DNA from: Escherichia phage ukendt
Sequence record: NC_052661.1
Strand: one strand, 5' to 3'
Length of the DNA stretch: 64,000 bases
Every line of letters begins with the position of its first letter. The first letter of the stretch is position 1. Below, one piece after another: positions 6,989 through 57,839 of the stretch. The notes beneath the pieces are model-generated. The model saw only the letters and a program-made list of their open reading frames with translations, did not search any database and was not told the origin of the DNA. Position numbers and translations under genes: made by a program.

Positions 6989-7462
6989 TTAAAGTTTATA
7001 AATAGTCACATCGTGACCTGTTTTTACTAAAGTTTCTTCAATCATCACTTGGATGATAGCCCAATTACCTCCAGCATATCCAGCGCCAATCATAGGTAAG
7101 CCGATCTTACATTTTTGGTCACGGAGAAGCAAATCATTAGCCATAGCTATTAGTGCATCGTAAAGTGCATCATAGTCCAACTGACGACCTTTAGCATTGT
7201 ATCCGTAACGGTATTGTCCGTATAGATTATATACCAAAGGGTCTGATTGTTCGTCTGGCAACCCTAAACTAAAAGAACCTAACTTACTTTGATCACCAGC
7301 CATTGTGTCTAAATCTGCCGCATATGCATAAGGGAATGCTCGTTTAATTTGCGGAGCAATTCCTGCTCCCATATTACACATACAATTGCAACAATGAGCA
7401 ATAACAGTTACTTCTCCTGCTTTAGCGGCATCAATAAGATTACCTGTTTTCATTTTAAGCAT
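6989..7462 (-). CDS. macro-domain protein (ADP-ribose binding/hydrolase)
   Basis: 157 aa; VIAHCCNCMCNMGAGIA and IGLPMIGAGYAGG match the two macro-domain Gly-rich loops. Confidence 0.6.
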   Translation of the reverse strand: MLKMKTGNLIDAAKAGEVTVIAHCCNCMCNMGAGIAPQIKRAFPYAYAADLDTMAGDQSKLGSFSLGLPDEQSDPLVYNLYGQYRYGYNAKGRQLDYDALYDALIAMANDLLLRDQKCKIGLPMIGAGYAGGNWAIIQVMIEETLVKTGHDVTIYKL

Positions 7463-24954: not shown

Positions 24955-26163
24955 ATGAGTAAAGCTAAAAGTTGGGAAGAATATAAAGCAGAATGCGAGA
25001 TCATAGCTCTCTCTAAAGGATATAAAATTTTAGGCCATAAAGAATGGAAAGGGTGTGAGACTAAACTCCTGATAGAATGTCCTGTGCACGGTGTATGGGA
25101 TACTTGTAAAATATCTAACTTTAAAAGTGGGAAGTCTTGCCCTTCTTGTGGTGAATTAACAAAAAGGGAGAAGAGAACGAAGAGCAGAGAGGACCAAGAG
25201 AAAGAGTGTGAAGAAGAAGCGTTAAAAAGAGGTTGGCGCTTCTTGGGTATCTACGGAGAATGGCTGAAAGCTAAAAAGACACGAGTAATCTTACGTTGTG
25301 ATAGGGGTCACGAGTTTAACACATCTACCATAGACAACTTTAAGAATAATAAACAAGGTTGTCCAGTTTGTCGTTTAGAGGATATAGGTAAACACAATAA
25401 GCTTTCAGACGATCAGCACATACAAGATTTCATGAGTACGGGTGTGTTTCCCGAAGGCACTACCTTCACTAATACAGGGGAAAAAGCTGGGAGGAGCGAA
25501 ATACTTTGGAGTGTATTTTGCCCTATCTGTGCTATAGACGAGTTTTCCAAAGCTGGGGTAGGAACGGGATATTTTATCGGTAGAGGTAGTTCATTAAAAC
25601 AGGGTATGCGCCCTTGTCGTTGTTCTGCCAGTTACAAATATTCTGAAGAAGAGATGACATTTAGAGCAAAAAGTGACGTAGAACGTAGAGGGTACGTGTG
25701 GTTGGGGTGGATCGGGAAAGCTTCTATACTTGGGGATTTTGAATATGGTTGCAAGGATCATGGGAAACATGTGTGTAGTGCTAACAATTGGTTAAATAAG
25801 GGGTGTGGTTGCCCTGGTTGTGCAGGTATGAATCAACAACAAGCCTACATTAATTATATTTACGATGAGCAAGATATTATCTGTGCACTGAAGTTTGGTA
25901 TTGCTAATAATAGTAATCGCCGTATCAAAGAACAAAATAGTCGTAATGTGTTTACTATGAAACAGAGCCAAGTGTGGCACTTCCCTACTGTGAAGCAATG
26001 CAAAGATGCAGAAAAGCGTTGTAAGCGTGTCCTTCACACGGAAGCAGTGAGCAAATATTCTATGCCAGATGGCTACACAGAGACAGTGGAGTTATCTTGC
26101 ATGGCATCAATACAAAATATTTATAAACTTTATGGTGGAACATTACAGGAGGAAACATGTTAG
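24955..26163 (+). CDS. Cys-rich repeat protein with four zinc-ribbon-like modules
   Basis: 402 aa; four repeats of G(Y/W)xxLG...CxxGHxF...GCPxC pattern. Confidence 0.5.
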   Translation: MSKAKSWEEYKAECEIIALSKGYKILGHKEWKGCETKLLIECPVHGVWDTCKISNFKSGKSCPSCGELTKREKRTKSREDQEKECEEEALKRGWRFLGIYGEWLKAKKTRVILRCDRGHEFNTSTIDNFKNNKQGCPVCRLEDIGKHNKLSDDQHIQDFMSTGVFPEGTTFTNTGEKAGRSEILWSVFCPICAIDEFSKAGVGTGYFIGRGSSLKQGMRPCRCSASYKYSEEEMTFRAKSDVERRGYVWLGWIGKASILGDFEYGCKDHGKHVCSANNWLNKGCGCPGCAGMNQQQAYINYIYDEQDIICALKFGIANNSNRRIKEQNSRNVFTMKQSQVWHFPTVKQCKDAEKRCKRVLHTEAVSKYSMPDGYTETVELSCMASIQNIYKLYGGTLQEETC

Positions 26164-26522
26164 TTGACGTTCAAATTATGCGCAACGAAAGAATGGACTT
26201 CTTTGAAGCAGTAGAGAAACATCTGATCCGATGGGACTATGAATTTGTTCCTGCTGGATGTGGACCAGTAGAGCATTTAGCGGAAGACGACGATGTATAC
26301 ATGATCATTCGTCAAGTGTACCAGACAGACCAGTGTGAAGAAACTCCCGAACTGATTTTGTTTGAGTGTAAAGATCTTGCAAAATATTTTGACTATGGCG
26401 GAAAAGAGGGTCATAATCTCTCCAGATACAATAAACGTCTACTTATCTTAGACTACATGCGGAACAACAAACACAAACTCATCGACGCAGAAGCAGTTTA
26501 TGGCTACTGGTGGATGGACTAA
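26157..26522 (+). CDS. hypothetical protein
   Basis: 121 aa ORF. Confidence 0.5.
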   Translation: MLVDVQIMRNERMDFFEAVEKHLIRWDYEFVPAGCGPVEHLAEDDDVYMIIRQVYQTDQCEETPELILFECKDLAKYFDYGGKEGHNLSRYNKRLLILDYMRNNKHKLIDAEAVYGYWWMD

Positions 26523-26535: not shown

Positions 26536-26715
26536 ATGGCACGTTTAGCAGATCATGAAATCTTTAAACCTATTCTGAACCACTATGATGAACTTAAAGC
26601 AGTGTTGGATTGTTATAGAGAGGATGAAGAACGTTTGGAAGTCAATCTTAAGATAGTTCTGATGAAAGCTTTTCAAGACGGGCAAGCTAAAGTTTTAGAA
26701 GGCATGAAAAAATGA
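26536..26715 (+). CDS. hypothetical protein
   Basis: Start refined to ATG 26536 after AAAGGAG. Confidence 0.45.
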   Translation: MARLADHEIFKPILNHYDELKAVLDCYREDEERLEVNLKIVLMKAFQDGQAKVLEGMKK

Positions 26716-27254
26716 GAATAACTGATGAATATGTATTCTTCTTTTCACATAAAGATGTGTTTAGTAATTGGTATATTGCACCCTTTACAGAAACTGAACC
26801 AGGTTACAATGAGACTTTCTGTTGTGTTGAGCAATATATGATGTGGCGTAAGGCTTTGCTGTTCAAGGATCATGCGATTGCAGCAGCTATCCTTGATCAC
26901 TCAACTATACGTGACAACGAGAGGAAACAAGCATACTACAAACGTATGGGTCGAGCGGTATCTGGTTTTAATAATGATATGTGGGAAGAGAACCGTGAGC
27001 GTATTGTTATGCGAGGCTTATGCTTGAAATATGTACAGAATCCAGATTTGTATGCAGACTTACACCTTTACCAATACAAAACGTTTGTTGAAGCAAGCCC
27101 CTACGATAAGGTTTACGGAATTGGAATGGGGATGTATGAACCAGGGGTGCTAAACCCTGCTACCTGGAAAGGGCAGAATCTTTTAGGCAAATATCATAAT
27201 AAACTGATCGAAATACTCTTCCAAGACAAAATACCGCAAAGACGATATTTGTGA
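26712..27254 (+). CDS. NADAR (YbiA-like) domain protein
   Basis: 180 aa; FFFSHKDVFSNWY...CCVEQYMMWRKA matches the NADAR signature. Confidence 0.6.
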   Translation: MRITDEYVFFFSHKDVFSNWYIAPFTETEPGYNETFCCVEQYMMWRKALLFKDHAIAAAILDHSTIRDNERKQAYYKRMGRAVSGFNNDMWEENRERIVMRGLCLKYVQNPDLYADLHLYQYKTFVEASPYDKVYGIGMGMYEPGVLNPATWKGQNLLGKYHNKLIEILFQDKIPQRRYL

Positions 27255-27310: not shown

Positions 27311-27345
27311 GGCTCCTACAGCACCGTAGAGAGCCTGTTATTTTA
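27311..27345 (+). terminator. rho-independent terminator after the NADAR gene
   Basis: GGCTCCTAC...GTAGAGAGCC hairpin followed by TGTTATTTTA. Confidence 0.45.
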
Positions 27346-27496
27346 TCCTATACAAACCCTTGTCTTTTTCAGTTTGCATCACTAGGATTCGATCTGAGTG
27401 GGTTCCTGAAGGTCTGCCAATAAGATTAAAGGTTATCTCAAATTCCCACTACCTATTATCTCAAAAATCCCTCAAATTATTTAAACTTTTTAAGAA

Positions 27497-27722: not shown

Positions 27723-27745
27723 GCAAATGATAATGATTCGCATTT
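27723..27745. promoter_or_regulatory. Fur-box-like operator (site A)
   Basis: GCAAATGATAATGATTCGCATTT, about 14 of 19 to the Fur consensus, 60 bp upstream of site B. Confidence 0.4.
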
Positions 27746-27761
27746 AAGTTTATAAATGAGA

Positions 27762-27803
27762 TTGATTCTTATTTAATAAGGTAAATGATAATCATTCTCA
27801 TTT
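27762..27803 (+). promoter_or_regulatory. promoter with Fur-box-like operator across the -10 (site B)
   Basis: TTGATT, 18 nt, TGATAAT; palindrome AAATGATAATCATTCTCATTT matches the Fur consensus GATAATGATAATCATTATC at 16 of 19 positions. Confidence 0.5.
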
Positions 27804-28021
27804 AGAGAATGACGCGCAGGGGCGGTGTTTGTCTCGCGCTCCCGTGTCCCCTCGCCATGTAATAAGAATAACAGATCCAGCCAGGAAAGCAAGAGATTAT
27901 TTTATCTTTACATTTCTTTACAAATATATAGCGCCCAGCCTACCGGCGATCAACCTTCCAACCAGTGCCTCTGGTATGTTAGCCCCGCCTTTACGCCGTG
28001 GGGTGGCGCTTCCTCTTCTGT

Positions 28022-28056
28022 ATGTAAAACAGTATAAGCCCGATCCCTGGGCTTGT
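28022..28056 (-). promoter_or_regulatory. sigma70-like promoter reading leftward into non-coding DNA
   Basis: On the minus strand: TTGACA, 17 nt (AGCCCAGGGATCGGGCT, itself a hairpin), TATACT. Confidence 0.4.
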
Positions 28057-28061
28057 CAAGA

Positions 28062-28328
28062 TTATTTTTTGTTTTCTTGCCAGGATAGGACACCTAACCA
28101 AAAATACATATCGCCCCGCGCCCCTGGTGGTATCTTGCTTTCCCCGCCGCCACTGCAAGCCCATAGATAACCATTTGCGAACGTATCAAAATGATCTATC
28201 TCTTCCACCTTATGATCGCCCAGGTTGAGAACGGTTTCAACCTTTAAGCCCGTTGCGCTTGCTACCTGGTGCACCGTGCCGCCTTGCCAGCCCAATGAGT
28301 GCATAAGGTGTAATGTAGTATTTGTCAT
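28062..28328 (-). CDS. hypothetical protein (divergent gene at left edge of cassette array)
   Basis: 88 aa ORF in GC-richer DNA; GC hairpin about 30 nt upstream of its ATG. Confidence 0.4.
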   Translation of the reverse strand: MTNTTLHLMHSLGWQGGTVHQVASATGLKVETVLNLGDHKVEEIDHFDTFANGYLWACSGGGESKIPPGARGDMYFWLGVLSWQENKK

Positions 28329-28437
28329 GGTATCGCCCTTTCTTTGATGTGCGCCCTGGTTGGCGCGGTAGAAAGATGATAGCCCTTTCTTTTATATATA
28401 GCAAGCAAAAAGAAAATAAAAAAGATTGAAAAAGTGA

Positions 28438-28496
28438 TTGACGTTCGCCAGGTGGCGGCATAATATTTACCACGTAGGGCGGCAATGGTGCCGCTC
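28438..28496 (+). promoter_or_regulatory. cassette promoter + 5' hairpin module
   Basis: TTGACG, 17 nt, TAATAT, then ACGTAGGGCGGCAATGGTGCCGCTCA hairpin. Confidence 0.55.
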
Positions 28497-28515
28497 ATTA
28501 TTTGGAGTTAAAATC

Positions 28516-28713
28516 ATGGCAACATTGCACATTGTGGCGAAAGCTGGACAAATAAACGTGGTAGTAAACGGTTTTACTGAGTTCAGTCATCCCCAGGATG
28601 ATCATGAAACGGTTTTATCTTTCATTGATTCACTGTTAGAAATGGGAGTAATTACAGAAGACCAGCACGCTACAAAATGCAAACGCGTTAATCAGATTGC
28701 AGGAATAGAATAA
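28516..28713 (+). CDS. cassette small protein
   Basis: 65 aa; own promoter-hairpin module; GGAG RBS. Confidence 0.5.
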   Translation: MATLHIVAKAGQINVVVNGFTEFSHPQDDHETVLSFIDSLLEMGVITEDQHATKCKRVNQIAGIE

Positions 28714-28720
28714 AAAGTAT

Positions 28721-28783
28721 TGACAACAACCAACAACCTGATAAGATGTATCACATAGGGCGGCGGAATGGTCCAGCCGCTCA
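28721..28783 (+). promoter_or_regulatory. cassette promoter + 5' hairpin module
   Basis: TTGACA, 16 nt, TAAGAT, then ACATAGGGCGGCGGAATGGTCCAGCCGC hairpin. Confidence 0.55.
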
Positions 28784-28805
28784 CAACAGAAGAGAGATTA
28801 TAATC

Positions 28806-29078
28806 ATGGCATCATATAGCGCAACAATGATCGTAGCTGGCACCACTGGTAAACCTATGAGCGGTGGCGGATCTTTCGCAAATATCAACATTGACGGGCG
28901 TTTATCCCTGGACGCAGCGATCACCGTGGCGCGGGAAACATTTAAGAAAGAATGTAAATTCAATAAACAAGATTATCTCGGTTTTGCTATTGAAAAAACC
29001 GCGCGTTTTGTTGATTATAAAAGCCCAAAAATGGTTGATACTACACTAAAAGCGCAAGATGTAGCGTTTTTGCTTTAA
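28806..29078 (+). CDS. cassette small protein
   Basis: 90 aa; promoter-hairpin module; start refined to 28806. Confidence 0.5.
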   Translation: MASYSATMIVAGTTGKPMSGGGSFANINIDGRLSLDAAITVARETFKKECKFNKQDYLGFAIEKTARFVDYKSPKMVDTTLKAQDVAFLL

Positions 29079-29082
29079 GGTT

Positions 29083-29136
29083 TGACATTAACGAATAATT
29101 TGTTAATATGTTACATAAAGCGGGAATAGTTCCCGC
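29083..29136 (+). promoter_or_regulatory. cassette promoter + 5' hairpin module
   Basis: TTGACA, 16 nt, TAATAT, then GCGGGAATAGTTCCCGC hairpin. Confidence 0.55.
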
Positions 29137-29154
29137 TATTTGTAAGGTGGTAGA

Positions 29155-29412
29155 ATGTTTTACATCAAATTAAAAGGTCACGTGATCGCGTTCAAGGATA
29201 ACGCTTTTTACAGATTAGCAAAGTATGCGTTAATACATCCCCATTATGTTTATATAAGGGGGCGTGATGAAATAAATATTTTTGATCAAACAACATGCGA
29301 GAACATCGAGATCCGCAAGGTTGGCGTACGTGACTATCGTACATCTTTCTACCCTTGCAAGGATTCAGCAAGTCTTTTTAAAGTATGCCGATTGTTGAAA
29401 AAAGGTGGTTAA
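29155..29412 (+). CDS. cassette small protein
   Basis: 85 aa; promoter-hairpin module. Confidence 0.5.
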   Translation: MFYIKLKGHVIAFKDNAFYRLAKYALIHPHYVYIRGRDEINIFDQTTCENIEIRKVGVRDYRTSFYPCKDSASLFKVCRLLKKGG

Positions 29413-29413
29413 T

Positions 29414-29971
29414 ATGGGCCGCGAATATGTGATCCAGTCTTGGGTAAAACATGAAGCAGATGATCCGCGCATCATTCCTGATTATCTTGTCGATGAATCC
29501 ACGGGCTATAGCGGGGAGCAAATAGGTAACAGATTAGCACGTAGTAACGGCAACGTAAAAGCGCGTTATGTGCGCCCTGGTTGGCTGGCAAATGGTAACG
29601 CTGATTTATCCAGTGCGGAAGATGCGAGCGACGGCGCGAAAGATAATCCCTTGTACAAAGTTGATCCGGCTTTTCGTGTCCTGGATGAATACCCCAACAA
29701 GATAGCGGCGCTTGATGAAGCACTAGAAAGTAAGCGCATCACCTGGACCGCTTACAACATGGCAAAAAACGTACTTGATGGTAAACTGATTCAAGCGGAG
29801 AGAAAATTAGCCAAAATTGCAGCCATAGCCCAGGAGGAAGACGAGGAGACAACGGAAGAGGAAGAGTACGAAGAGATCCCGCCGTTGTTGTGTGTTGATG
29901 CTTTTCCTGATTATCAGCCGACAGAGGAAGAAAAAAGGATCGCCCTAGAAAACTTTGAAAATAGTCTTTGA
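29414..29971 (+). CDS. cassette protein with highly acidic C-terminus
   Basis: 186 aa; EEDEETTEEEEYEE tail; co-transcribed with preceding gene. Confidence 0.5.
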   Translation: MGREYVIQSWVKHEADDPRIIPDYLVDESTGYSGEQIGNRLARSNGNVKARYVRPGWLANGNADLSSAEDASDGAKDNPLYKVDPAFRVLDEYPNKIAALDEALESKRITWTAYNMAKNVLDGKLIQAERKLAKIAAIAQEEDEETTEEEEYEEIPPLLCVDAFPDYQPTEEEKRIALENFENSL

Positions 29972-30026
29972 CATATCGCCGCCACTAGCATAATATTTAC
30001 CACGTAGGGCGGCAATGGTGCCGCTC
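29968..30026 (+). promoter_or_regulatory. cassette promoter + 5' hairpin module
   Basis: TTGACA, 17 nt, TAATAT, then GCGGCAATGGTGCCGC hairpin. Confidence 0.55.
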
Positions 30027-30053
30027 ATAGTGAAATTATACAAGAGGCTTACA

Positions 30054-30149
30054 ATGATTAATAAAGAAAATAGCTTGACGGTTGGAACGATTAACGGTAT
30101 CATTCTAGCCGTTCCATTTTGGATTGTAGTAGCGGTTATTATTTTCTAA
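30054..30149 (+). CDS. cassette hydrophobic peptide
   Basis: 31 aa; own promoter-hairpin module. Confidence 0.35.
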   Translation: MINKENSLTVGTINGIILAVPFWIVVAVIIF

Positions 30150-30157
30150 AAATATTC

Positions 30158-30218
30158 TTGACAACGTTTTTTAATCTGATAAGATGTATCACATAGGGCG
30201 GCGGAATACTTCCCCGCC
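30158..30218 (+). promoter_or_regulatory. cassette promoter + 5' hairpin module
   Basis: TTGACA, 16 nt, TAAGAT, then GGGCGGCGGAATACTTCCCCGCC hairpin. Confidence 0.55.
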
Positions 30219-30239
30219 AAAACAAAAAAGGGTAACACA

Positions 30240-30602
30240 ATGAGCAAGCAAATCAATACTATCATGTTTAATCTGGTATCTTTCCGCGATGATATGAAAA
30301 ATTTACCACGTGAAACGGTTGATATTCATGTTTCAGCTTATCGCGCCCTTATTGACATGTTACCGCTAAAACGTGATCAACATGCCGCTAATATGATGCT
30401 TAATGCTATGCTTAAAAAGATGATTCAAACGGATCTTACTCTGGCATATGAGTATCAAGGGCGCTTATATGCAACTTACAACAAGGCGGTACCTGGTCTG
30501 GGAAGTACCGAAGAGTTGCACGGCTTAAACCTGGATCAAAACACTTGGGATAGTATGCGCCGCGTTATGGTATGGGCCGAAAGCGGTAAAATTTACGAAT
30601 AA
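30240..30602 (+). CDS. cassette small protein
   Basis: 120 aa; promoter-hairpin module. Confidence 0.5.
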   Translation: MSKQINTIMFNLVSFRDDMKNLPRETVDIHVSAYRALIDMLPLKRDQHAANMMLNAMLKKMIQTDLTLAYEYQGRLYATYNKAVPGLGSTEELHGLNLDQNTWDSMRRVMVWAESGKIYE

Positions 30603-30608
30603 AAACGG

Positions 30609-30668
30609 TTGACACTGTTTAAACTTCTGGTATAGTTTACCACATAGGGCGGGAAGTGGTTTCCCGCC
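30609..30668 (+). promoter_or_regulatory. cassette promoter + 5' hairpin module
   Basis: TTGACA, about 17 nt, TATAGT, then GGCGGGAAGTGGTTTCCCGCC hairpin. Confidence 0.55.
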
Positions 30669-30690
30669 AACAATTAAAAAGGTTATCATC

Positions 30691-31056
30691 ATGGCTATTA
30701 ATATTAATGTTTCCTCTTATGCTACCCTGGCTGACACGGCTAAAATTGAATTATCCAGCATTGAGGCGGTGCATATTAGCGCCCGTCGCTGGTTTCAACA
30801 GTCCTACGGTAACACATATTTTTCTTTAATGGTTGACGTTGAGATCGGCGGTAAACTGATCGAGGTGGTTAACGTTCCGTTTCAATATGGTTATGGTGAT
30901 CATTTTGATACCGTCGCCCTGGAAGAATTTAGCAAGGTCGTTAATATGGAAGGTAAAGAGTTTTCACGCGGCGCGTATCTTTCCCGTTTTTGCCGTGACA
31001 ATGGGATCACTGTATACAGTCATGCAAGCGATGTTAAACGTAAAAAAGATCTATAA
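30691..31056 (+). CDS. cassette small protein
   Basis: 121 aa; promoter-hairpin module. Confidence 0.5.
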   Translation: MAININVSSYATLADTAKIELSSIEAVHISARRWFQQSYGNTYFSLMVDVEIGGKLIEVVNVPFQYGYGDHFDTVALEEFSKVVNMEGKEFSRGAYLSRFCRDNGITVYSHASDVKRKKDL

Positions 31057-31063
31057 AAAGCAT

Positions 31064-31121
31064 TGACAGCACGAATAAAAAGAGTAAACTGTATTACATA
31101 GAGAGCGGGAACACTTCCCGC
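31064..31121 (+). promoter_or_regulatory. cassette promoter + 5' hairpin module
   Basis: TTGACA, 16 nt, TAAACT, then GCGGGAACACTTCCCGC hairpin. Confidence 0.55.
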
Positions 31122-31145
31122 CTCACTGAAAAAGAGAGAAAAATC

Positions 31146-31385
31146 ATGGCTAAATCTAAAATGTACAACGGTCACAAAAACAAAACTCATTGGAATGTAA
31201 GCCTTTGGATTAATAACGATGAATCATTGTATCGGTTTGCATTGGGATTGATCAATGAGTGCGGTAATAAAGATCAGGCGGCTGATTTAATGTGCTACCG
31301 TTTGAAACAGGATGGAATCACTACAACGCCAGACGGCTTTAAGTATAGTAAAACTGCAATCCGCGCCGCTATGGTTGGAATGTAA
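31146..31385 (+). CDS. cassette small protein
   Basis: 79 aa; promoter-hairpin module. Confidence 0.5.
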   Translation: MAKSKMYNGHKNKTHWNVSLWINNDESLYRFALGLINECGNKDQAADLMCYRLKQDGITTTPDGFKYSKTAIRAAMVGM

Positions 31386-31394
31386 TAAAAACAG

Positions 31395-31454
31395 TTGACA
31401 ACGTTTAAAATTAGTGTAAGATGTATCACATAGGGCGGGAAGTGGTTTCCCGCC
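31395..31454 (+). promoter_or_regulatory. cassette promoter + 5' hairpin module
   Basis: TTGACA, 16 nt, TAAGAT, then GGCGGGAAGTGGTTTCCCGCC hairpin. Confidence 0.55.
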
Positions 31455-31476
31455 AACAACAGAGAGATTAAAGATT

Positions 31477-31704
31477 ATGGCTATCAATATTGTTCGTGTA
31501 TCCGGCACCGTTGGCAGTTCCCAGGTTGTAGCAGTTATCACAGAGAAGAAAGGGGATGATCTTCACTCTTCCTTGAATAGCTGGGCGGTCGCTAACTTCG
31601 GGCAATGGTCGAGCGTTGAGTACATCGAATCCTACCAGGTGCCGACGATTAGCCTAACCGATCTCAACGTTGATCGCTTGTTGTGCCTGGATGAATTAAT
31701 CTGA
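31477..31704 (+). CDS. cassette small protein
   Basis: 75 aa; promoter-hairpin module. Confidence 0.5.
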   Translation: MAINIVRVSGTVGSSQVVAVITEKKGDDLHSSLNSWAVANFGQWSSVEYIESYQVPTISLTDLNVDRLLCLDELI

Positions 31705-31714
31705 AAAAAGATTG

Positions 31715-31772
31715 TTGACACCGGAAAGAAAAAGAGTAGAATATATTACATAGGGCGGCAATGGTGCCGCTC
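31715..31772 (+). promoter_or_regulatory. cassette promoter + 5' hairpin module
   Basis: TTGACA, 16 nt, TAGAAT, then GCGGCAATGGTGCCGC hairpin. Confidence 0.55.
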
Positions 31773-31795
31773 ACAACAGAAGAGAGATTATCACG

Positions 31796-32011
31796 ATGGC
31801 TAATATCCGCACTTTACTGAAAAATGCAAGTCAAGTTTTATTTTCAGATGACGAGTATTTCAATAAAGACATTACAGGCGTGAAAAATTTAAAAGACGTG
31901 AAGGATGTTATCGGTATTCGTGGATCTTTACGTAAAGGTGATTACTATGGTAACAAGGTGCAATATAAACTGTCAAAGGATTACAATTTTACTTTGACAA
32001 TTATTTCATAA
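31796..32011 (+). CDS. cassette small protein
   Basis: 71 aa; promoter-hairpin module. Confidence 0.5.
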   Translation: MANIRTLLKNASQVLFSDDEYFNKDITGVKNLKDVKDVIGIRGSLRKGDYYGNKVQYKLSKDYNFTLTIIS

Positions 32012-32017
32012 AACCGC

Positions 32018-32077
32018 TTGCAATACTGCAAAAATAAAGTAAACTATATTCATCAAGGCGGGGAATGGTCCGCCGCC
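32018..32077 (+). promoter_or_regulatory. cassette promoter + 5' hairpin module
   Basis: TTGCAA, 16 nt, TAAACT, then GGCGGGGAATGGTCCGCCGCC hairpin. Confidence 0.5.
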
Positions 32078-32101
32078 TAACAAAGAGAAGAGGAAAACAT
32101 C

Positions 32102-32275
32102 ATGATCACTTTCGCTACCCGTGAAGCCGCTCGCAACGTTGCACGTAAAGTTAACGCCGCCAACCTGGGCGCTACACTTAAAGCCCCGGTGAAAGATGAA
32201 TCAGGCAAATGGATCTTCCCTGGTCTGCGTCATGCTGACAAGTTAGGTACTTTAAGCCTTAAAAATAATCGTTGA
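32102..32275 (+). CDS. cassette small protein
   Basis: 57 aa ORF not in track; promoter-hairpin module. Confidence 0.4.
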   Translation: MITFATREAARNVARKVNAANLGATLKAPVKDESGKWIFPGLRHADKLGTLSLKNNR

Positions 32276-32309
32276 CTTTTCGTTATAGCGCCTTACAATG
32301 GGCGCTATA
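32272..32309 (+). promoter_or_regulatory. variant cassette promoter with palindrome across the -10
   Basis: TTGACT, 16 nt, TACAAT, embedded in TATAGCGCC...GGCGCTATA inverted repeat. Confidence 0.45.
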
Positions 32310-32342
32310 GAGAAGAGAAACCACTATTAACAAGGAAACATC

Positions 32343-32564
32343 ATGATTACTTTTGCTATTGTCGCCGTTGTTGCTGGTCAGGTTTACGTAAATGATACAT
32401 TCACCACAGAAGACAAGGCAGCAGGAGACATCACCGCCGCTTATAATGAGTGCAAGGCAGTAGAAAGGATGTTAGCGCCTTGTATGCTAATGAGTGAACG
32501 CCAGGACGGAATAACAGTATTTACTAACATTGAAACAGGGTACCAAATGGTAGTAACAAAATAA
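32343..32564 (+). CDS. cassette small protein
   Basis: 73 aa; variant promoter with palindrome. Confidence 0.5.
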   Translation: MITFAIVAVVAGQVYVNDTFTTEDKAAGDITAAYNECKAVERMLAPCMLMSERQDGITVFTNIETGYQMVVTK

Positions 32565-32567
32565 AGC

Positions 32568-32624
32568 TTGACACCGATTTAATTTTTAGTAAACTGTTAC
32601 ACGTAGGGCGGGAATAGTTCCCGC
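32568..32624 (+). promoter_or_regulatory. cassette promoter + 5' hairpin module
   Basis: TTGACA, 16 nt, TAAACT, then GCGGGAATAGTTCCCGC hairpin. Confidence 0.55.
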
Positions 32625-32643
32625 TCAAAAAGAGAGAAAGACC

Positions 32644-32997
32644 ATGAAAGCACAAAATGCAATTAAAGAGTACATCCTTGCCGCTATCGATTTTAATGAT
32701 TACGGTATTACAACCGAAAAAGAGAAGATCGCGGAATTGATGCGCCGTTTTAATTCCGAGTACTGGTACCCTGATAACCAATCACGTTTTAATTATAGTA
32801 TTGTTAAAGCACTTGCATCATGGTTACAAGGCTTGCCATCAGATATCAATATCGCTTTCGAATATTGGGAAATTGATCGCCTGTTAACATCCTGGGGATA
32901 CATTAAAGAGAATAGCAGCGATGATAAAATCCAACGAGAAAGGGAAAATTATTGGCTTTATATTGCAGGCGTGATCCTTGCTTGCTCTTATGAATGA
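32644..32997 (+). CDS. cassette small protein
   Basis: 117 aa; promoter-hairpin module. Confidence 0.5.
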   Translation: MKAQNAIKEYILAAIDFNDYGITTEKEKIAELMRRFNSEYWYPDNQSRFNYSIVKALASWLQGLPSDINIAFEYWEIDRLLTSWGYIKENSSDDKIQRERENYWLYIAGVILACSYE

Positions 32998-33003
32998 TAA
33001 ACC

Positions 33004-33058
33004 TTGACAATTTTACAAAACAGTTTAAATTAACAATATAGCGGCAATGGTGCCGCTC
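33004..33058 (+). promoter_or_regulatory. cassette promoter + 5' hairpin module
   Basis: TTGACA, A/T-rich -10 region, then GCGGCAATGGTGCCGC hairpin. Confidence 0.5.
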
Positions 33059-33076
33059 ATATGAAGAGGAAACAAA

Positions 33077-33223
33077 ATGAATACATCTAATCGCGCAGAA
33101 AAAATTCAATCTTCCAAGATCCGCAAGGCCTGGAACGAGGAAGTGATCCGCAAAGGCGACAAGCGCAATAAAACAAAGCGCGGGAAGAGTGACAAATATA
33201 ATTGGATGGATTTAGAGGATTAA
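33077..33223 (+). CDS. cassette small basic protein
   Basis: 48 aa Lys/Arg-rich; promoter-hairpin module; followed by terminator. Confidence 0.4.
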   Translation: MNTSNRAEKIQSSKIRKAWNEEVIRKGDKRNKTKRGKSDKYNWMDLED

Positions 33224-33230
33224 CATAACA

Positions 33231-33257
33231 AGGGCGCATCAAGCGCCCTTTCTTTTT
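33231..33257 (+). terminator. rho-independent terminator inside the cassette array
   Basis: AGGGCGC-ATCAA-GCGCCCT followed by TTCTTTTT. Confidence 0.6.
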
Positions 33258-33278
33258 ACATGTAGAGGATAAACAAAA

Positions 33279-33464
33279 ATGATTTTAAACGAGCTTAAAA
33301 CAGCCTACAACGCAACATTAAAAATAGCCGTGCGTTACCGTGATGCGTACGGTTTTATCGCGCAGGGCGTGATCCTGGGCTTTTCTGACGATGGTTTGAT
33401 CTATGTTGATGCACATCACAACAAGGTTAAACCGGAAAACGTTATCAATATAAAATATCTTTAA
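33279..33464 (+). CDS. cassette small protein
   Basis: 61 aa; RBS GAGGA. Confidence 0.45.
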   Translation: MILNELKTAYNATLKIAVRYRDAYGFIAQGVILGFSDDGLIYVDAHHNKVKPENVINIKYL

Positions 33465-33470
33465 AAGTGG

Positions 33471-33527
33471 TTGACACCATAACCGGACCTGTTAAACTGT
33501 ATTACATCAGGCGGGGAATAGTTCCCC
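33471..33527 (+). promoter_or_regulatory. cassette promoter + 5' hairpin module
   Basis: TTGACA, 16 nt, TAAACT, then GGGGAATAGTTCCCC hairpin. Confidence 0.55.
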
Positions 33528-33550
33528 CACCATACAAAAAGGTAAATATT

Positions 33551-33757
33551 ATGATCACCGCAAAACAAGAAAAAATCATTATCGACGTTGCAGCCGTTGC
33601 CGCTATTGCTATTATTGGATCTTATTATGATACCCGTTTCCCGTCGGCTATGCATGAGATCGCCGCCGTTGCATCAGTCGGCGTGCTGTTTTACGTTGGT
33701 AAACGCTATTTATCACCAATGATTAACAAGCTGACACCGTGGAAAAATAAAGGTTGA
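33551..33757 (+). CDS. cassette small membrane protein
   Basis: 68 aa; promoter-hairpin module; start refined to 33551. Confidence 0.5.
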   Translation: MITAKQEKIIIDVAAVAAIAIIGSYYDTRFPSAMHEIAAVASVGVLFYVGKRYLSPMINKLTPWKNKG

Positions 33758-33810
33758 TCCTGTTTTATATTGTGTTATAGTTATCGTGTAGGGCGGCAAT
33801 GGTGCCGCGC
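33754..33810 (+). promoter_or_regulatory. cassette promoter + 5' hairpin module
   Basis: TTGATC, 16 nt, TATAGT, then GCGGCAATGGTGCCGC hairpin. Confidence 0.5.
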
Positions 33811-33829
33811 CCCCTTTGAGGATGAAATC

Positions 33830-34114
33830 ATGAGTAAAGCTAACACCGTGCTAATGTTTTCCCTGATTAATGATCCCGCTTACTTGTCCAACATGACGCA
33901 GGAGGGTAACACATTAACGGCAACATTCACCAATAAGCTTGACCGAGTGATCATCATCTCACTGAAAACAGTTAGTAAAGGCTTTTACTCGTTAGCTTAT
34001 CATTGGATCACCGATACCGATGAGACAAGCCAGGACTATAGCGCCCCTTTCCCTGAATCAATGGCACGGGAGATCATCGCCGCCGTTGTAAATGATGGTT
34101 TGTTTACTGCATAA
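33830..34114 (+). CDS. cassette small protein
   Basis: 94 aa; shares 25-nt initiation region with gene at 24955. Confidence 0.5.
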   Translation: MSKANTVLMFSLINDPAYLSNMTQEGNTLTATFTNKLDRVIIISLKTVSKGFYSLAYHWITDTDETSQDYSAPFPESMAREIIAAVVNDGLFTA

Positions 34115-34131
34115 ATAATTTAGAAAAAGGC

Positions 34132-34188
34132 TTGCAATCATTTTGAGATAGTGTATATTTAATTCATAGGGCGGCGGGAATAGTTCCC
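34132..34188 (+). promoter_or_regulatory. cassette promoter + 5' hairpin module
   Basis: TTGCAA, 16 nt, TATATT, then GGGAATAGTTCCC hairpin. Confidence 0.5.
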
Positions 34189-34211
34189 AAAGCAAACGAG
34201 AGGATTACACG

Positions 34212-34330
34212 ATGAGCAAGTACACAGTAGAATACACGGTAGAAAATCCGGCAGTATCCGAAGGTAAAAAGATGACATTTGCCATCAGTATAATCGCTTT
34301 CGTTGTCACTATCTTATCAATCATCTTATA
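34212..34330 (+). CDS. cassette hydrophobic peptide
   Basis: 39 aa with C-terminal TM segment; promoter-hairpin module. Confidence 0.35.
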
Positions 34331-34341
34331 AGGTGCACACC

Positions 34342-34503
34342 ATGAAAACAACAGATATTATCAAAGAGATCGCCCTTGCCGCTGGCGTTGAGATCGAGGA
34401 AGTGATCGCGCTCAATCTTACAGAAAACGATCTGCGCAACTATGAAGCGGAAAGCGTGAAAGCAAGCGGTGCGATCCTGGCATATAATCCGGCTAACAAG
34501 TAA
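34342..34503 (+). CDS. cassette small protein
   Basis: 53 aa ORF. Confidence 0.35.
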   Translation: MKTTDIIKEIALAAGVEIEEVIALNLTENDLRNYEAESVKASGAILAYNPANK

Positions 34504-34512
34504 GGGGATAAC

Positions 34513-34623
34513 ATGAATCCGAAAGATATGCAAGCATGGAAAGGGTACGACGATCTGAGCGCCTTGCGTAATAAGTCCAGCCGTAACCTTAGACGATTGC
34601 AAGCAAAGAAAAAGAAAAAATAG
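34513..34623 (+). CDS. cassette small basic protein
   Basis: 36 aa ending KKKKK. Confidence 0.3.
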   Translation: MNPKDMQAWKGYDDLSALRNKSSRNLRRLQAKKKKK

Positions 34624-34624
34624 T

Positions 34625-34682
34625 TTGACAAGTCCGCTTAATCTGATAATATGTATCTTGTAGGGCGGCAATGGTGCCGCTC
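34625..34682 (+). promoter_or_regulatory. cassette promoter + 5' hairpin module
   Basis: TTGACA, 16 nt, TAATAT, then GCGGCAATGGTGCCGC hairpin. Confidence 0.55.
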
Positions 34683-34701
34683 ACAAGAAGAGAGAAAAAT
34701 C

Positions 34702-34986
34702 ATGAAAATCACAAAAAGCCTAACTAATTATGCAGCACGTCGCGGATTATGTTTAACCGTTGAAAACTTAGGGAAAGAAGACTTTTTGTGTTTTTGGGAG
34801 CTTGAAAACGATTGCGAGTGGATGTTTTCCTATTCTATCTGCGAAGATCAAAACGGTTGTTTGTTAACCTGGCGCGGTAATATTTATTTACCGGAAGAAA
34901 TTAAAGAGGAATTACCAGGTACGATCATGACAGAGAGACAGCTTAAGGAAATGATTAATTTTGTAGGGCAAAACATTAAAAAATAA
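34702..34986 (+). CDS. cassette small protein
   Basis: 94 aa; promoter-hairpin module. Confidence 0.5.
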   Translation: MKITKSLTNYAARRGLCLTVENLGKEDFLCFWELENDCEWMFSYSICEDQNGCLLTWRGNIYLPEEIKEELPGTIMTERQLKEMINFVGQNIKK

Positions 34987-34987
34987 T

Positions 34988-35050
34988 TTGACAGCACGCA
35001 AACAACGTAGTAAAGTTTACCACATAGGGCGGCGGAATGGTCCACCGCTC
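34988..35050 (+). promoter_or_regulatory. cassette promoter + 5' hairpin module
   Basis: TTGACA, 17 nt, TAAAGT, then GGGCGGCGGAATGGTCCACCGC hairpin. Confidence 0.55.
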
Positions 35051-35071
35051 ACAACAGAAGAGAAACAAATC

Positions 35072-35242
35072 ATGATCCCGACTATGTTTTATGTATCGCG
35101 CAAAGGTCACAATATTTTTTGGTCTGAAGATTTAAATGAAGCCATGACGTTTGCCCGTGATCGTGTTGCTATCGGTGGCGTTAACATCACCGTAACCGAT
35201 GAAAATGGCATTGAATACTATAACGGCGACGATGAAGAGTAA
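35072..35242 (+). CDS. cassette small protein
   Basis: 56 aa; promoter-hairpin module. Confidence 0.45.
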   Translation: MIPTMFYVSRKGHNIFWSEDLNEAMTFARDRVAIGGVNITVTDENGIEYYNGDDEE

Positions 35243-35249
35243 TTAATGA

Positions 35250-35267
35250 GGCGGGGAGTACCCCGCC
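35250..35267 (+). promoter_or_regulatory. cassette-type GC hairpin without recognisable -35/-10
   Basis: GGCGGGGAGTACCCCGCC, 20 nt upstream of the ATG at 35287. Confidence 0.4.
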
Positions 35268-35286
35268 GTCAATAAAGAGGTAAATC

Positions 35287-35556: not shown

Positions 35557-35557
35557 T

Positions 35558-56565: not shown

Positions 56566-57366
56566 TTATTTGTTTAAATGGTCTTCAACCATTTTGATAA
56601 AGCCTTCATCACTGAAGACTGTTCCTGCTTTCTCTCGGTAGACAAGCACTCCACGTTCTTCGTAGAGAGTTTGTTCTACAAAATTCAAACCTGGGTTAAC
56701 TACAACCATCTTAACCCCAATATTCAGGGCAGGGAAGAGTTCCCAGTTGAAGTTGATTACTTGGTTAGAGCAGCCTACAACGATAACCATATCTTGTGAT
56801 GTTAGTTGATCCAGTTTGTGATACATGTCTGTGTAGAGCGGTGCATTCTCACCAAAAAACACCACATTAGGCTTCACATATTTGTAATCGTCTACATCAA
56901 TAGCTGCGTAACCCACATCTTTGATAATTTTGTTATCAACAACAACTTCTGGCAAGAAACCATGAACGTGCAATATTTCTTCTCTATCGATTCCAGCGCG
57001 TTCTAATAGATCGTCAACGTTAGTAGTGATGTTAATAATCCTTTCTGCACCGTATTTTTCGAACCATTCTCCAATCTGAAGATGTGCTGGATTCGGGTCA
57101 ACTTTCTCTAATTCCACGCGACGTTTATTGTAGAAGTCGTGAGTTTTACGGTAGAGGTTATATCCTTCCACATCTAAGCCACCCATAGCATCAGGAATAC
57201 CCTGTTCTTGCTGATAACCGTCACGGAAGTTGAAAATGTCACAGACTTCTGTCAAATCGTATTCATCCCATAATGCCTTTCCAGAATCTGTTTCTGTGCG
57301 AAATGTTTGGATTCCGCTGTCAGCACTTAGTCCCGCACCACTAATAAAATATACACGTCTTGGCAT
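56566..57366 (-). CDS. Sir2-family (sirtuin-like) NAD-dependent protein
   Basis: 266 aa; FISGAGLSADSGIQTFR, HG, NVVFFGEN and VVGCSN motifs; no obvious zinc-ribbon Cys4. Confidence 0.6.
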   Translation of the reverse strand: MPRRVYFISGAGLSADSGIQTFRTETDSGKALWDEYDLTEVCDIFNFRDGYQQEQGIPDAMGGLDVEGYNLYRKTHDFYNKRRVELEKVDPNPAHLQIGEWFEKYGAERIINITTNVDDLLERAGIDREEILHVHGFLPEVVVDNKIIKDVGYAAIDVDDYKYVKPNVVFFGENAPLYTDMYHKLDQLTSQDMVIVVGCSNQVINFNWELFPALNIGVKMVVVNPGLNFVEQTLYEERGVLVYREKAGTVFSDEGFIKMVEDHLNK

Positions 57367-57839
57367 TATTCGTCCTCCTCAAATGGATCATAAGAATCAT
57401 ATTCGTAAGTATCATCTTCTGAAAATTCTACTTCAAAATAAATATCAAACTCTGCAAATAGACAGAGGATGTTAGACATGCTATAATAATTATCGTAGGC
57501 AGATTCAGCTTCATAATAAACATAAAGCAAATGGTTAGCCTTATCATCTTCCAAATATTTCCCGTCTGCATAAGCATAATCCGCATATGCTTTACCTGCA
57601 TCTTCTACAAAGGAACGATCAAGCAGAGTAGGAAAGGGTTTCTCTTTTTCTTTTAGTTTGCTCACCAACCAATGTGCAATCTCACTCCAGTCTGCATCCA
57701 TTCCACTGAAACAACTGGCACCTTCACCAAATTCTGCTTCTCCTAAGTCCCCTTTAATAGTAACTACAGTAGAGCTATTGTAACCGCAATCTTCACAGTC
57801 TGAATAACTATTGTGGACATTAATTTCTACTTGAAACAT
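57366..57839 (-). CDS. highly acidic protein
   Basis: 157 aa Asp/Glu/Tyr-rich; stop overlaps Sir2 start. Confidence 0.5.
   Translation of the reverse strand: MFQVEINVHNSYSDCEDCGYNSSTVVTIKGDLGEAEFGEGASCFSGMDADWSEIAHWLVSKLKEKEKPFPTLLDRSFVEDAGKAYADYAYADGKYLEDDKANHLLYVYYEAESAYDNYYSMSNILCLFAEFDIYFEVEFSEDDTYEYDSYDPFEEDE

Follow-up and report, generated by a model that had tools for sequence, protein, structure and literature searches.

All four NADAR families have members that hydrolyse guanine-ADPr in vitro (PMC11125620, PMC12945103), and the NADARs tested, three phage proteins among them, act on guanine-ADPr but counter neither thymine-ADPr nor DarT2 (PMC11125620, PMC11825919). The described protein closest to the gene considered here is AdfN-Bas60. 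It counteracts the toxicity of DarT1 in E. coli, and in its presence RB69, T5 and Bas25 plate again on hosts carrying DarTG1 (Johannesman 2025, PMC11825919). In the same paper, AdfN-Bas60 is without effect on DarTG2 hosts, the evidence comes from ectopic expression only and the published tree places the protein among the non-YbiA, non-DarG1 NADARs (PMC11825919).

AdfN-T4 (gp30.3) frees DNA of guanine-ADPr and overcomes DarTG1 (PMC11825919; 10.1101/2025.11.20.689424); it represents an independent acquisition (PMC11825919), requires a T-even-specific factor and, alone, does not rescue from DarT1 (PMC11125620, PMC11825919), and it is unable to remove cytidine-ADPr (PMC12945103). YbiA is a housekeeping riboflavin-intermediate N-glycosidase encoded in a LexA-controlled operon and gives no in vivo protection against DarT1 (PMC11125620). 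YbiA and T4 gp30.3 both hydrolyse guanine-ADPr, yet neither rescues from DarT1 outside the right context, so activity in vitro is no guarantee of protection in vivo (PMC11125620). In our literature search NADAR was not found together with Phapecoctavirus or phAPEC8, and neither Phapecoctavirus nor DarTG occurs in the second BASEL paper.

Identification and fold of the NADAR-domain protein

The window, a stretch of 64,000 nucleotides, comes from a phAPEC8-like coliphage of the genus Phapecoctavirus. A sequence-only reading of it had proposed a NADAR (YbiA-like) gene at positions 26712–27254, and the gene stands: an open reading frame of 180 aa with an ATG start occupies these positions on the + strand, and the two motifs quoted for it, FFFSHKDVFSNWY and CCVEQYMMWRKA, are residues 9–21 and 37–48 of its translation. 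Pfam NADAR (PF08719) matches the protein with E=3.4e-35 and 122.1 bits (gathering score 35.1), in a near full-length alignment of protein residues 11–161 to model positions 3–154 of 163; this family match exceeds chance by a wide margin. PHROG 1017, labelled 'unknown function', also matches (E=2e-51).

Structural evidence agrees with the domain assignment. An AF2 model, run on an alignment without the Bas60 row, reached a pLDDT of 94.8 and a pTM of 0.88, and in a Foldseek search of the PDB its only significant matches were 8BAU, the P. nicotianae NADAR with ADP-ribose (TM 0.79, rmsd 2.6 Å), and YbiA 2B3W (TM 0.69–0.74), placing the modelled protein in the NADAR alpha+beta fold. A sequence search of the PDB likewise returned 8BAU (E=1e-12). 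With a 73-sequence profile 8BAU scored 1e-34 as against 4e-16 for YbiA 2B3W, and YbiA falls outside the clade of the window protein, which consequently does not group with it. The protein nevertheless passes NCBIfam TIGR02464 (114.9 bits, cut-off 73.7), a model that evidently takes in the wider NADAR domain, though named for the YbiA function. The description 'YbiA-like' is thus apt at superfamily level, whereas stand-alone bacterial NADARs and the P. nicotianae protein are closer to it.

Public annotation of the gene is uneven. In GenBank the gene of related phages is named 'hypothetical protein', 'riboflavin biosynthesis intermediates N-glycosidase' or 'GTP cyclohydrolase II'. The last label is wrong for the phAPEC8-like gene; it is established that the name derives from plant RibA-NADAR fusions and not from cyclohydrolase homology (PMC9503650). 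Within the genus the gene has a dN/dS of 0.04–0.15 and is under purifying selection.

Catalytic and ADP-ribose-binding residues

Alignment to 8BAU places the Glu/Lys pair of an EQYxxxxK motif at E40 (26829–26831) and K47 (26850–26852), that is, within 26829–26852 on the + strand. The equivalents are E43/K50 in the P. nicotianae protein (PnNADAR), E88/K95 in E. coli C7 DarG1 and E36/K43 in T4 AdfN, and both residues are invariant in a nine-sequence alignment with characterised NADARs as well as in 72–73 homologues. Mutational evidence for the role of Glu and Lys in this E-x6-K motif is given in PMC11543638 and PMC11825919.

The contacts to the ADP-ribose phosphates and adenine align to K77, R81, W91 and R95, whose codons lie within 26940–26996 (+ strand). 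K77 corresponds to PnNADAR K75 and to K115 of E. coli C7, a residue required in vivo to counter DarT1 (residue roles in PMC11543638). Among the 72 homologues G80 and W91 never vary, and K77 and R81 each occur in at least 90%. In the third segment, V126-E127-A128-S129-P130-Y131-D132 (27087–27107, + strand), E127, A128, S129, P130 and D132 are invariant across the homologues. The third of the catalytic acidic residues, E125 in PnNADAR, is E127 here and has the glutamate form, and D132 equals PnNADAR D130; histidine at the third catalytic position is a known variant, found in T4 AdfN (PMC11543638).

All of the residues important in characterised NADARs (E40, K47, K77, R81, W91, E127 and D132) are therefore kept. 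Loss of conserved catalytic residues on alignment had been named beforehand as what would count against the NADAR assignment, and every one of them is present; the protein is predicted to be an intact enzyme with the full catalytic set.

Orthology to AdfN-Bas60 and predicted function

Beyond the genus Phapecoctavirus the nearest relative of the window protein is bas60_0111, which is 57% identical to it along the entire length (E=9e-68). Its source is Escherichia phage PaulScherrer, a member of the sister genus Justusliebigvirus; this genome was identified as Bas60 through BASEL naming and locus tags. We infer that bas60_0111 is the published AdfN-Bas60, as it is the only NADAR match within that genome. 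Both genera share the gene order AAA ATPase, CapR/T5orf172 endonuclease, NADAR, gap and small-gene cassettes, and in a neighbour-joining tree the window protein and AdfN-Bas60 form one clade, with the P. nicotianae NADAR, YbiA and T4 AdfN outside it.

On this basis the gene probably encodes a free-standing NADAR of the AdfN kind that removes guanine ADP-ribose from phage DNA and thereby defeats DarTG1, a reading to which we assign a probability of about 0.65 and which is the most likely one because a 57%-identical gene of the sister genus has been shown to do so. In a DarTG1 host, DarT1 would ADP-ribosylate guanine N2 in the phage DNA and block its replication. The NADAR protein, made from an early-type block of + strand genes and so presumably expressed early, would bind the ADP-ribose moiety through K47, K77, R81, W91 and R95, while E40 and E127 would cleave the N-glycosidic ribose–guanine bond; the DNA would return to its unmodified state and replication could proceed. 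No ADP-ribosyltransferase (ART) domain was detected in the NADAR operon, which comprises the AAA ATPase, the CapR/MUG113 endonuclease and small ORFs, and the NADAR gene is accordingly an orphan. Its product would in effect provide a type IV antitoxin activity in orphan form, without a linked toxin.

The proposal that the phage carries an ADP-ribose glycohydrolase as counter-defence against ADP-ribosylating immunity is thus supported by the intact catalytic set and by the anti-DarTG1 orthologue AdfN-Bas60. The plaque assay first suggested for it, on DarT2-expressing hosts, addresses the wrong system: the NADARs tested act on guanine-ADPr, and DarT1 fits. The present analysis provides the fold and the catalytic set, the signal of purifying selection, the orthologous and syntenic relation to AdfN-Bas60 and the lack of a neighbouring ADP-ribosyltransferase. 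Guanine-ADPr hydrolysis and DarTG1 rescue are carried over from the literature on homologues, and the window NADAR would presumably play the same role in natural infection; at 57% identity its specificity may nonetheless have shifted.

Transcription unit and downstream region

A small ORF directly upstream of the NADAR gene (26536–26715, + strand; 59 aa as annotated in the relatives UP17, ESCO5 and tuntematon) has no Pfam match. The stop codon of this ORF (TGA) and the start codon of NADAR overlap in an ATGA, which suggests translational coupling. The nearest promoter match upstream of NADAR in a consensus scan, the sole basis of this assignment, is a putative sigma70-like element at 26389–26417 (+ strand; TTGACT-N17-CATAAT, 10 of 12 positions), and further putative sigma70-like matches (21561, 22661, 22975 and 23272) are found where the early-type + strand block begins. 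Downstream, an intrinsic terminator at 27311–27346 (+ strand) consists of the hairpin AGGCUCCUAC...GUAGAGAGCCU with a U-rich tract behind it (RNA fold z = -2.6), and the homologous site in phage ASO2A is annotated as a rho-independent terminator. NADAR is the final gene of its + strand transcription unit.

An array of promoter/stem-loop/small-gene cassettes begins at ~28438; its interpretation as a tRNA array was ruled out, as ARAGORN found no tRNA genes. The NADAR gene had been described as the last one before this array, which holds in that it ends its transcription unit; between that unit and the array, however, there are 1.26 kb that contain a conserved element without coding capacity as well as a single small gene at 28062–28328 on the - strand. 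The element itself (~27783–28060) is deeply conserved and unannotated, and we note it as a candidate ncRNA. Tandem palindromes occupy 27723–27805 and are candidate Fur-binding sites. Rfam returned no match to it at E≤1 except a chance miRNA match, no match was found in E. coli genomes and nothing in a literature search; its RNAalifold energies are nearly equal on both strands and favour neither.

Macro-domain and Sir2-family proteins

Two other proteins with ADP-ribose- or NAD-related domains are encoded in the window. A macro-domain protein of the DarG/TARG1 class (6989–7462, - strand; 157 aa) is matched by Pfam Macro with 23.2 bits (gathering score 22), by NCBIfam antitoxin_DarG (E=1.6e-8) and by PADLOC DarG (E=1.9e-9); its PDB matches are 5E3B, TARG1 and DarG 5M31, and it shares 37% identity with T4 Tk.4 (AdfM; E=2e-21). 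A Sir2-family protein of 266 aa (56566–57366, - strand; Pfam SIR2 E=1.4e-20) also matches NCBIfam deacylase models, in every case below the cut-off. The ORF next to Sir2 (57366–57839, - strand) was considered as the macro gene and rejected, since it has no Pfam match. The macro gene lies ~19 kb and the Sir2 gene ~29 kb from NADAR, both on the opposite strand, which places them outside the NADAR operon. Of the suggested set of three distinct ADP-ribose/NAD-handling domains, the existence of the macro and Sir2 members is confirmed by Pfam; they are dispersed, with no sign of joint action.

T4 pairs AdfN against DarTG1 with AdfM against DarTG2 (preprint 10.1101/2025.11.20.689424), and the presence of NADAR and a DarG/AdfM-like macro protein in one phage mirrors this pairing. 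By analogy, the macro protein is a candidate for countering DarT2, and the DarT2/thymine experiment originally put forward for NADAR would suit the macro protein instead.

A mosaic tract within the NADAR gene

Comparison with ESCO5 delimits a mosaic tract at codons 50–92 (26859–26987, + strand), which takes in helix alpha2, a clade-specific ~7-residue insertion loop and the first part of the helix carrying K77 and R81. These codons account for 14 of the 19 amino-acid changes relative to ESCO5, synonymous sites are saturated within the tract as against a dS of 0.08–0.48 in the flanking codons, and the genes neighbouring NADAR are 99–100% identical to those of ESCO5. Two deeply divergent versions of the tract are present in the genus. 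Codons 50–92 are the most variable part of the protein and adjoin the K77/R81 substrate-binding helix; a recombinant, highly divergent patch in this position is a small new observation.

It is conceivable, if rather doubtful, that the protein is a broad-spectrum nucleic-acid de-ADP-ribosylase acting on guanine- and cytidine-ADPr in both DNA and RNA, and that the surface tract records a continuing arms race with diverse host ADP-ribosyltransferases or host inhibitors. If true, NADAR together with the AdfM-like macro protein would confer general immunity to base-ADP-ribosylating defences, including undiscovered ones, in phages of broad host range.

Alternative functions

A related possibility, which we regard as unlikely, is that the enzyme acts more broadly than or differently from AdfN-Bas60, removing ADP-ribose from cytidine and/or RNA guanosine as well; its natural target would then not be DarT1 but, for example, a pierisin/ScARP-like or an RNA-targeting transferase. 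A glutamate at the third catalytic position (E127) and the proximity to the general 'NADAR' family, with 8BAU as best match, are compatible with such a range, and Johannesman et al. suggest counter-defences against undiscovered ADP-ribosylating defences (PMC11825919). The phenotype reported there for the orthologue is, however, anti-DarTG1 (PMC11825919), and no E. coli anti-phage defence is known to target cytidine or RNA guanosine; a broader specificity would moreover extend guanine-ADPr removal against DarTG1 more than exclude it.

Improbable, in our estimate, is a role as a non-catalytic binder, or a small-molecule hydrolase, of ADP-ribose that counters NAD-consuming defences (retron-Eco1-type, Thoeris, Sir2 NADases) with no DNA repair. 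Iyer et al. argued, on the basis of gene neighbourhoods, that the NADAR and macro domains of phages mostly target soluble ADP-ribose derivatives (PMC9503650), Johannesman et al. mention a phage NADAR without need for enzymatic activity, citing the Retron-Eco1 study (PMC11825919), and the ADP-ribose-binding residues of the window protein are intact. The full catalytic set is nevertheless invariant across 72 homologues, which argues for catalysis, and the orthologue acts enzymatically against a DNA modification (PMC11825919). T5-like phages do not occur among the tblastn matches listed or in their organism summary (E≤1e-5), so that any T5-like NADAR would be only distantly related. For the further suggestion that NADAR bears on NAD-depleting immunity, nothing was found here.

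Still less credible is a housekeeping 'damage control' role, in which a YbiA-type metabolic N-glycosidase would hydrolyse reactive intermediates of the riboflavin pathway. The TIGR02464 match, the rank of YbiA 2B3W as second-best structural match and the gene names in several GenBank records would fit it; set against these are the ~30% identity to YbiA, the position of the protein outside the YbiA branch and the lack of riboflavin genes among the window ORFs scanned, and YbiA itself also hydrolyses guanine-ADPr (PMC11125620, PMC12945103). Finally, an antidote or regulator that limits self-damage by the phage's own ADP-ribosyltransferase, in a YarT-YbiA-like or Alt-like pairing, has a precedent in ART-NADAR toxin-antitoxin pairs (PMC11125620) and in T4-like phages, whose NADAR genes are reportedly expressed early alongside ARTs (PMC9503650), but neither the operon nor the larger ORFs scanned, over 64 kb of the ~150 kb genome, contain an ART domain, and we give this pairing hardly any credence.

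Comparison with characterised NADARs

Relative to DarG1 (E. coli C7; G. lovleyi 8BAT), the window protein shares the superfamily, the glutamate, the lysine and the lysine essential in vivo (K115, equivalent to K77), and presumably the chemistry, the hydrolysis of guanine-N2-ADP-ribose. It departs from DarG1 on three counts: DarG1 is adjacent to darT1, a neighbour with no counterpart in the window operon; DarG1 has an N-terminal extension, whereas the window domain begins at about residue 5; and the third catalytic position is Asp in DarG1 (D171 in E. coli C7) and Glu127 here. Neither the sequence profile (E≤0.01) nor Foldseek (E≤0.001) retrieved 8BAT, and the relation to DarG1 consequently rests on the literature. 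With YbiA (2B3W) the protein has in common the NADAR fold, a glutamate-type active site and the TIGR02464 match, and it differs by its ~30% identity and by the placement of YbiA outside its clade. The P. nicotianae NADAR (8BAU), of the general 'NADAR' family, is the best match among solved structures and its ADP-ribose-contacting residues all align, whereas it is eukaryotic, ~28–31% identical and without the clade-specific insertion loop.

AdfN-T4 resembles the window protein as an orphan NADAR of a lytic coliphage in which the E/K catalytic pair is kept. The identity between the two is ~18%, and AdfN-T4 has His at the third catalytic position where the window protein has Glu (E127), which sets the latter apart from the T4-type 'phage NADAR'. 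The closest correspondence is with AdfN-Bas60: both are stand-alone proteins of ~180 aa with the same catalytic residues, including glutamate at the third position, both carry the clade-specific insertion ahead of the K77/R81 helix, and both occupy the same genomic slot in phages of the subfamily Stephanstirmvirinae. They differ in 43% of residues, the Bas60 protein carries an insertion of 7 residues behind position 33 and ends in a different C-terminal tail, and in Phapecoctavirus two additional small ORFs separate the NADAR gene from the endonuclease.

Phages related to phAPEC8 are popular therapy candidates against avian-pathogenic and multidrug-resistant E. coli. A gene publicly labelled 'hypothetical protein' or 'GTP cyclohydrolase II' in these phages now has a specific predicted function, and the predicted consequence, resistance to DarTG1, together with the DarTG2 resistance suggested by the AdfM-like macro protein, bears on forecasts of host range. 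The mechanism is not new; the AdfN concept extends from Justusliebigvirus to its sister genus Phapecoctavirus, with the window protein as an AdfN-Bas60 orthologue and predicted DNA guanine-ADP-ribose glycohydrolase.

Identity, fold and active site of the NADAR protein

The ORF at 26712..27254 (+) starts with ATG and encodes 180 aa, and both motifs quoted for it by the sequence-only reading, which had proposed a NADAR protein, occur in its translation. That family assignment was confirmed by Pfam NADAR (E=3.4e-35, 122 bits against a gathering score of 35); the protein also scores over the NCBIfam TIGR02464 cut-off and matches PHROG 1017, labelled 'unknown function', and PADLOC PDC-M42C, a candidate-system component. 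Escherichia phage vB_EcoM_UP17 matches the window at 99.6% identity, and phAPEC8, ESCO5 and other Phapecoctavirus (Stephanstirmvirinae) match it at 95–99%. Several near-identical genomes carry Campylobacter, Acinetobacter or Serratia phage labels, and their hosts may be mislabelled. Public records list the gene as a 'hypothetical protein' or misname it 'GTP cyclohydrolase II' and, once, 'DNA methyltransferase' (ESCO5 NC_047776 gp149, ABPW7, TSP7_1, AV123, KMB37, Eryne). A literature search retrieved no study of NADAR in Phapecoctavirus or phAPEC8.

Sequence comparison with the PDB gave just two solved relatives, the Phytophthora nicotianae NADAR in complex with ADP-ribose (PnNADAR, 8BAU), found at E=1e-12 with the single sequence and 1e-34 with a 73-sequence profile, and E. 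coli YbiA (2B3W), found at 4e-16 with the profile. The fold was established with an AlphaFold2 model built from 72 homologues (mean pLDDT 94.8), for which Foldseek against the PDB returned 8BAU (TM 0.79) and 2B3W (TM 0.69–0.74) and no other significant structure. Purifying selection on the gene is evident from dN/dS values of 0.04–0.15 within Phapecoctavirus.

Schuller et al. 2023 (PMC11543638) established which PnNADAR residues bind ADP-ribose and which residues of DarG1, the NADAR antitoxin of E. coli C7, are required for guanine-ADPr hydrolysis and DarT1 rescue. Pairwise alignment to 8BAU showed that the window protein carries all of them: E40 (PnNADAR E43, E. coli C7 E88), K47 (K50, E. coli C7 K95), K77 (K75, E. 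coli C7 K115), R81, W91 and R95 (R79, W89 and R93), and E127 and D132 (E125 and D130), with F86 and Y135 as conservative substitutions for PnNADAR Y84 and W133. E40, K47, G80, W91, E127-A-S-P and D132 are invariant in 72/72 homologues; at K77 and R81 conservation is 90% or higher. Loss of catalytic residues, named beforehand as grounds for rejecting a hydrolase, is thus not seen. In the alignment with characterized NADARs, T4 AdfN has its known His variant in the E127 column.

Relationship to AdfN-Bas60 and allelic variation

Homologues were retrieved by tblastn in 717 phage records, with identities of at least 80% in Phapecoctavirus, followed by ~57% in Justusliebigvirus (phi92-like), ~42–44% in other Vequintavirinae-like phages and ~35–40% in Staphylococcus, Listeria, Bacillus and Enterococcus myoviruses. 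Bas60–62 are phi92-like phages (PMC8594841), and bas60_0111 is the sole NADAR gene of Bas60 (PaulScherrer); we infer that it encodes the protein published as AdfN-Bas60. Its product is 57% identical to the window protein over the full length (E=9e-68), and a neighbour-joining tree places the two in one phage clade among stand-alone bacterial NADARs, with PnNADAR, then YbiA, then T4 AdfN increasingly distant. Orthology is accompanied by synteny, both loci following the order AAA ATPase, CapR/T5orf172-type endonuclease, NADAR, a poorly annotated gap of 1.3–1.5 kb and an array of small genes. The product of 24955-26163 (+), two ORFs 5' of the NADAR gene, is a 402-aa Cys-rich protein with three CapR-homology repeats and a weak C-terminal MUG113/T5orf172 (GIY-YIG-like) match; it is annotated 'endonuclease' and is possibly a nuclease with a mobile or regulatory role.

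Within Phapecoctavirus, codons 50–92 (26859-26987), which run from helix alpha2 through a clade-specific insertion loop into the first part of the K77/R81 helix, hold 14 of the 19 amino-acid differences from the ESCO5-type allele. In comparisons with ESCO5, tuntematon and ASO2A, synonymous changes in this tract have reached saturation, whereas flanking NADAR codons have dS of 0.08–0.48 and neighbouring genes are 99–100% identical. Recombination has thus left a mosaic here, and Phapecoctavirus contains two versions of the tract that are deeply divergent; consistent with two circulating versions, tblastn identities fall into bands of roughly 27 records at ≥95% and 42 at 80–95%. On the protein surface, the two allele classes differ in a patch that adjoins the substrate-binding helix.

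The region downstream of NADAR

The NADAR gene and the cassette array are separated by 1.26 kb, in which an ORF and a non-coding element lie. Phapecoctavirus and Justusliebigvirus share ~97% nucleotide identity over ~27795-28430, whereas the adjacent NADAR proteins share just 57%. This interval includes an ORF at 28062..28328 (-), unannotated in many records, with a ribosome-binding site and a terminator-like hairpin; its 88-aa product is 94% identical to bas60_0113 of Justusliebigvirus, far above the neighbouring NADAR, and matched no Pfam family.

Adjoining it is an unannotated GC-rich non-coding element (27783-28060, core ~27905-28028), which matches 233 phage records from Stephanstirmvirinae and several Vequintavirinae genera, its core retaining 71–82% nucleotide identity in Mydovirus, Certrevirus, Seunavirus and related Vequintavirinae phages. 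It is a candidate structured RNA, since its indels are non-3n, one hairpin varies in length and a CCCCGC/GUGGGG stem shows two compensatory changes. Searches yielded no Rfam match at E≤1 beyond one chance miRNA and no match in E. coli genomes. A minus-strand sigma70-like promoter (TTGACA-N17-TATACT, 28059 to 28031), kept in 11/11 phages examined, points toward the element and holds a covarying GC hairpin in its spacer. The strand signals of the element differ, G·U pairs favouring the plus strand and fold energies being alike on both.

Directly upstream, a 21-nt palindrome (AAATGAnAnTnATTCnnATTT) is repeated three times in tandem at 27723-27805. The copies look like Fur boxes: the best (27781-27799) matches 16/19 of the E. 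coli Fur consensus, where chance alone would give 0.04 matches of this quality. On the minus strand, the last copy doubles as a terminator-like hairpin. The copies are more numerous in Bas60, and further palindromes of this type occur at 38843-38871 and 39022-39050.

The cassette array (~28438-36420, +) comprises at least nine small genes, each cassette consisting of a sigma70-like promoter (TTGACA-N16/17-TAAGAT-like), a conserved 5' stem-loop (GGGCGGCAATGGTGCCGC or GGCGG-GAATGG-TCC variants), a ribosome-binding site and the gene. Beyond it, 37382-37840 (+) encodes a homologue of T4 gp30.8 (Pfam Phage_30_8, E=8e-28), whose T4 gene lies in one cluster with 30.3/adfN, and 49059-49736 (+) a serine recombinase (Resolvase N-terminal domain, E=5e-18), in a phage regarded as strictly lytic.

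Macro-domain and Sir2-like proteins

The sequence-only reading had grouped NADAR with two further ADP-ribose/NAD-handling proteins, and both exist. The macro protein, at 6989..7462 (-), lies slightly over the Pfam Macro threshold; its best family match is the DarG macrodomain (NCBIfam and PADLOC), in the PDB it is related to SCO6735, TARG1 and DarG, and its family extends to 2,935 records across phages. Annotated 'phosphatase' in relatives, its gene adjoins ComF-like PRTase and HAD hydrolase genes within a tellurite-resistance-like and nucleotide-metabolism cluster at 180-8953 (-) (TerF-like vWA, SprT-like, TerC, ComF-like PRTase, HAD hydrolase). The Sir2-like protein, at 56566..57366 (-), is recognized by Pfam at E=1.4e-20, while its similarity to CobB-type deacylases stays under the NCBIfam cut-offs; no family was matched by the neighbouring ORF 57366..57839. 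The three genes are present but, being 19–29 kb apart and not co-oriented, are not linked at the operon level. The assay proposed for NADAR on hosts expressing DarT2, which modifies thymine, suits the macro protein instead.

Proposed function and comparison with known systems

We propose, with a probability of about two in three, that the window NADAR is an orphan-antitoxin-like DNA ADP-ribosylglycohydrolase acting against DarT1 during infection: DarT1 would place ADP-ribose on guanine in phage DNA, and the NADAR protein would remove it, allowing replication to proceed. The enzyme class is a much more secure claim than the physiological role. NADAR activity in vitro is not always matched by protection in cells (PMC11125620), and at least one phage NADAR, cited in PMC11825919, is reported to act without catalysis. 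The gene is probably expressed early, since it is the final cistron of a plus-strand block with sigma70-like promoter matches at its head (consensus scan), its ATG overlaps the preceding stop codon and an intrinsic terminator lies 3' of it.

Broader specificity, extending to cytidine-ADPr and RNA, is plausible, such activity being known in Glu-type NADARs and YbiA family members, but DarG1 and T4 AdfN lack it (PMC12945103). Before the biochemistry was available, gene context had also led to the proposal that phage NADARs counter soluble ADP-ribose signals or NADase defences (PMC9503650). The protein is an orphan, without the DarG1-type N-terminal extension and with no ART domain found among its operon genes; an antidote to the phage's own ART likewise lacks a partner in the inspected 64 kb. 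A YbiA-type riboflavin role, suggested by database names, is not supported by phylogeny or gene context. Action against DarT1 is the preferred reading, and the core of the earlier counter-defence interpretation is supported.

The closest precedents come from Johannesman et al. 2025 (PMC11825919), who showed T4 gp30.3 to be AdfN, an orphan NADAR that strips ADP-ribose from phage DNA and overcomes DarTG1, and who described AdfN-Bas60 as a distinct NADAR of BASEL phages Bas60–62. In their experiments, ectopic AdfN-Bas60 neutralizes the toxicity of DarT1 and lets RB69, T5 and Bas25 plate again on hosts carrying DarTG1, but does not restore T5 plating on DarTG2. With T4 Tk.4, named AdfM, the T4 anti-DarTG2 factor, in a 2025 preprint (10.1101/2025.11.20.689424), the macro protein shares 37% identity (E=2e-21), and the window phage therefore shares with T4 a NADAR-plus-macro pairing. 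AdfN-type phage NADARs are a recently established kind, to which the Phapecoctavirus protein is a new, predicted addition.
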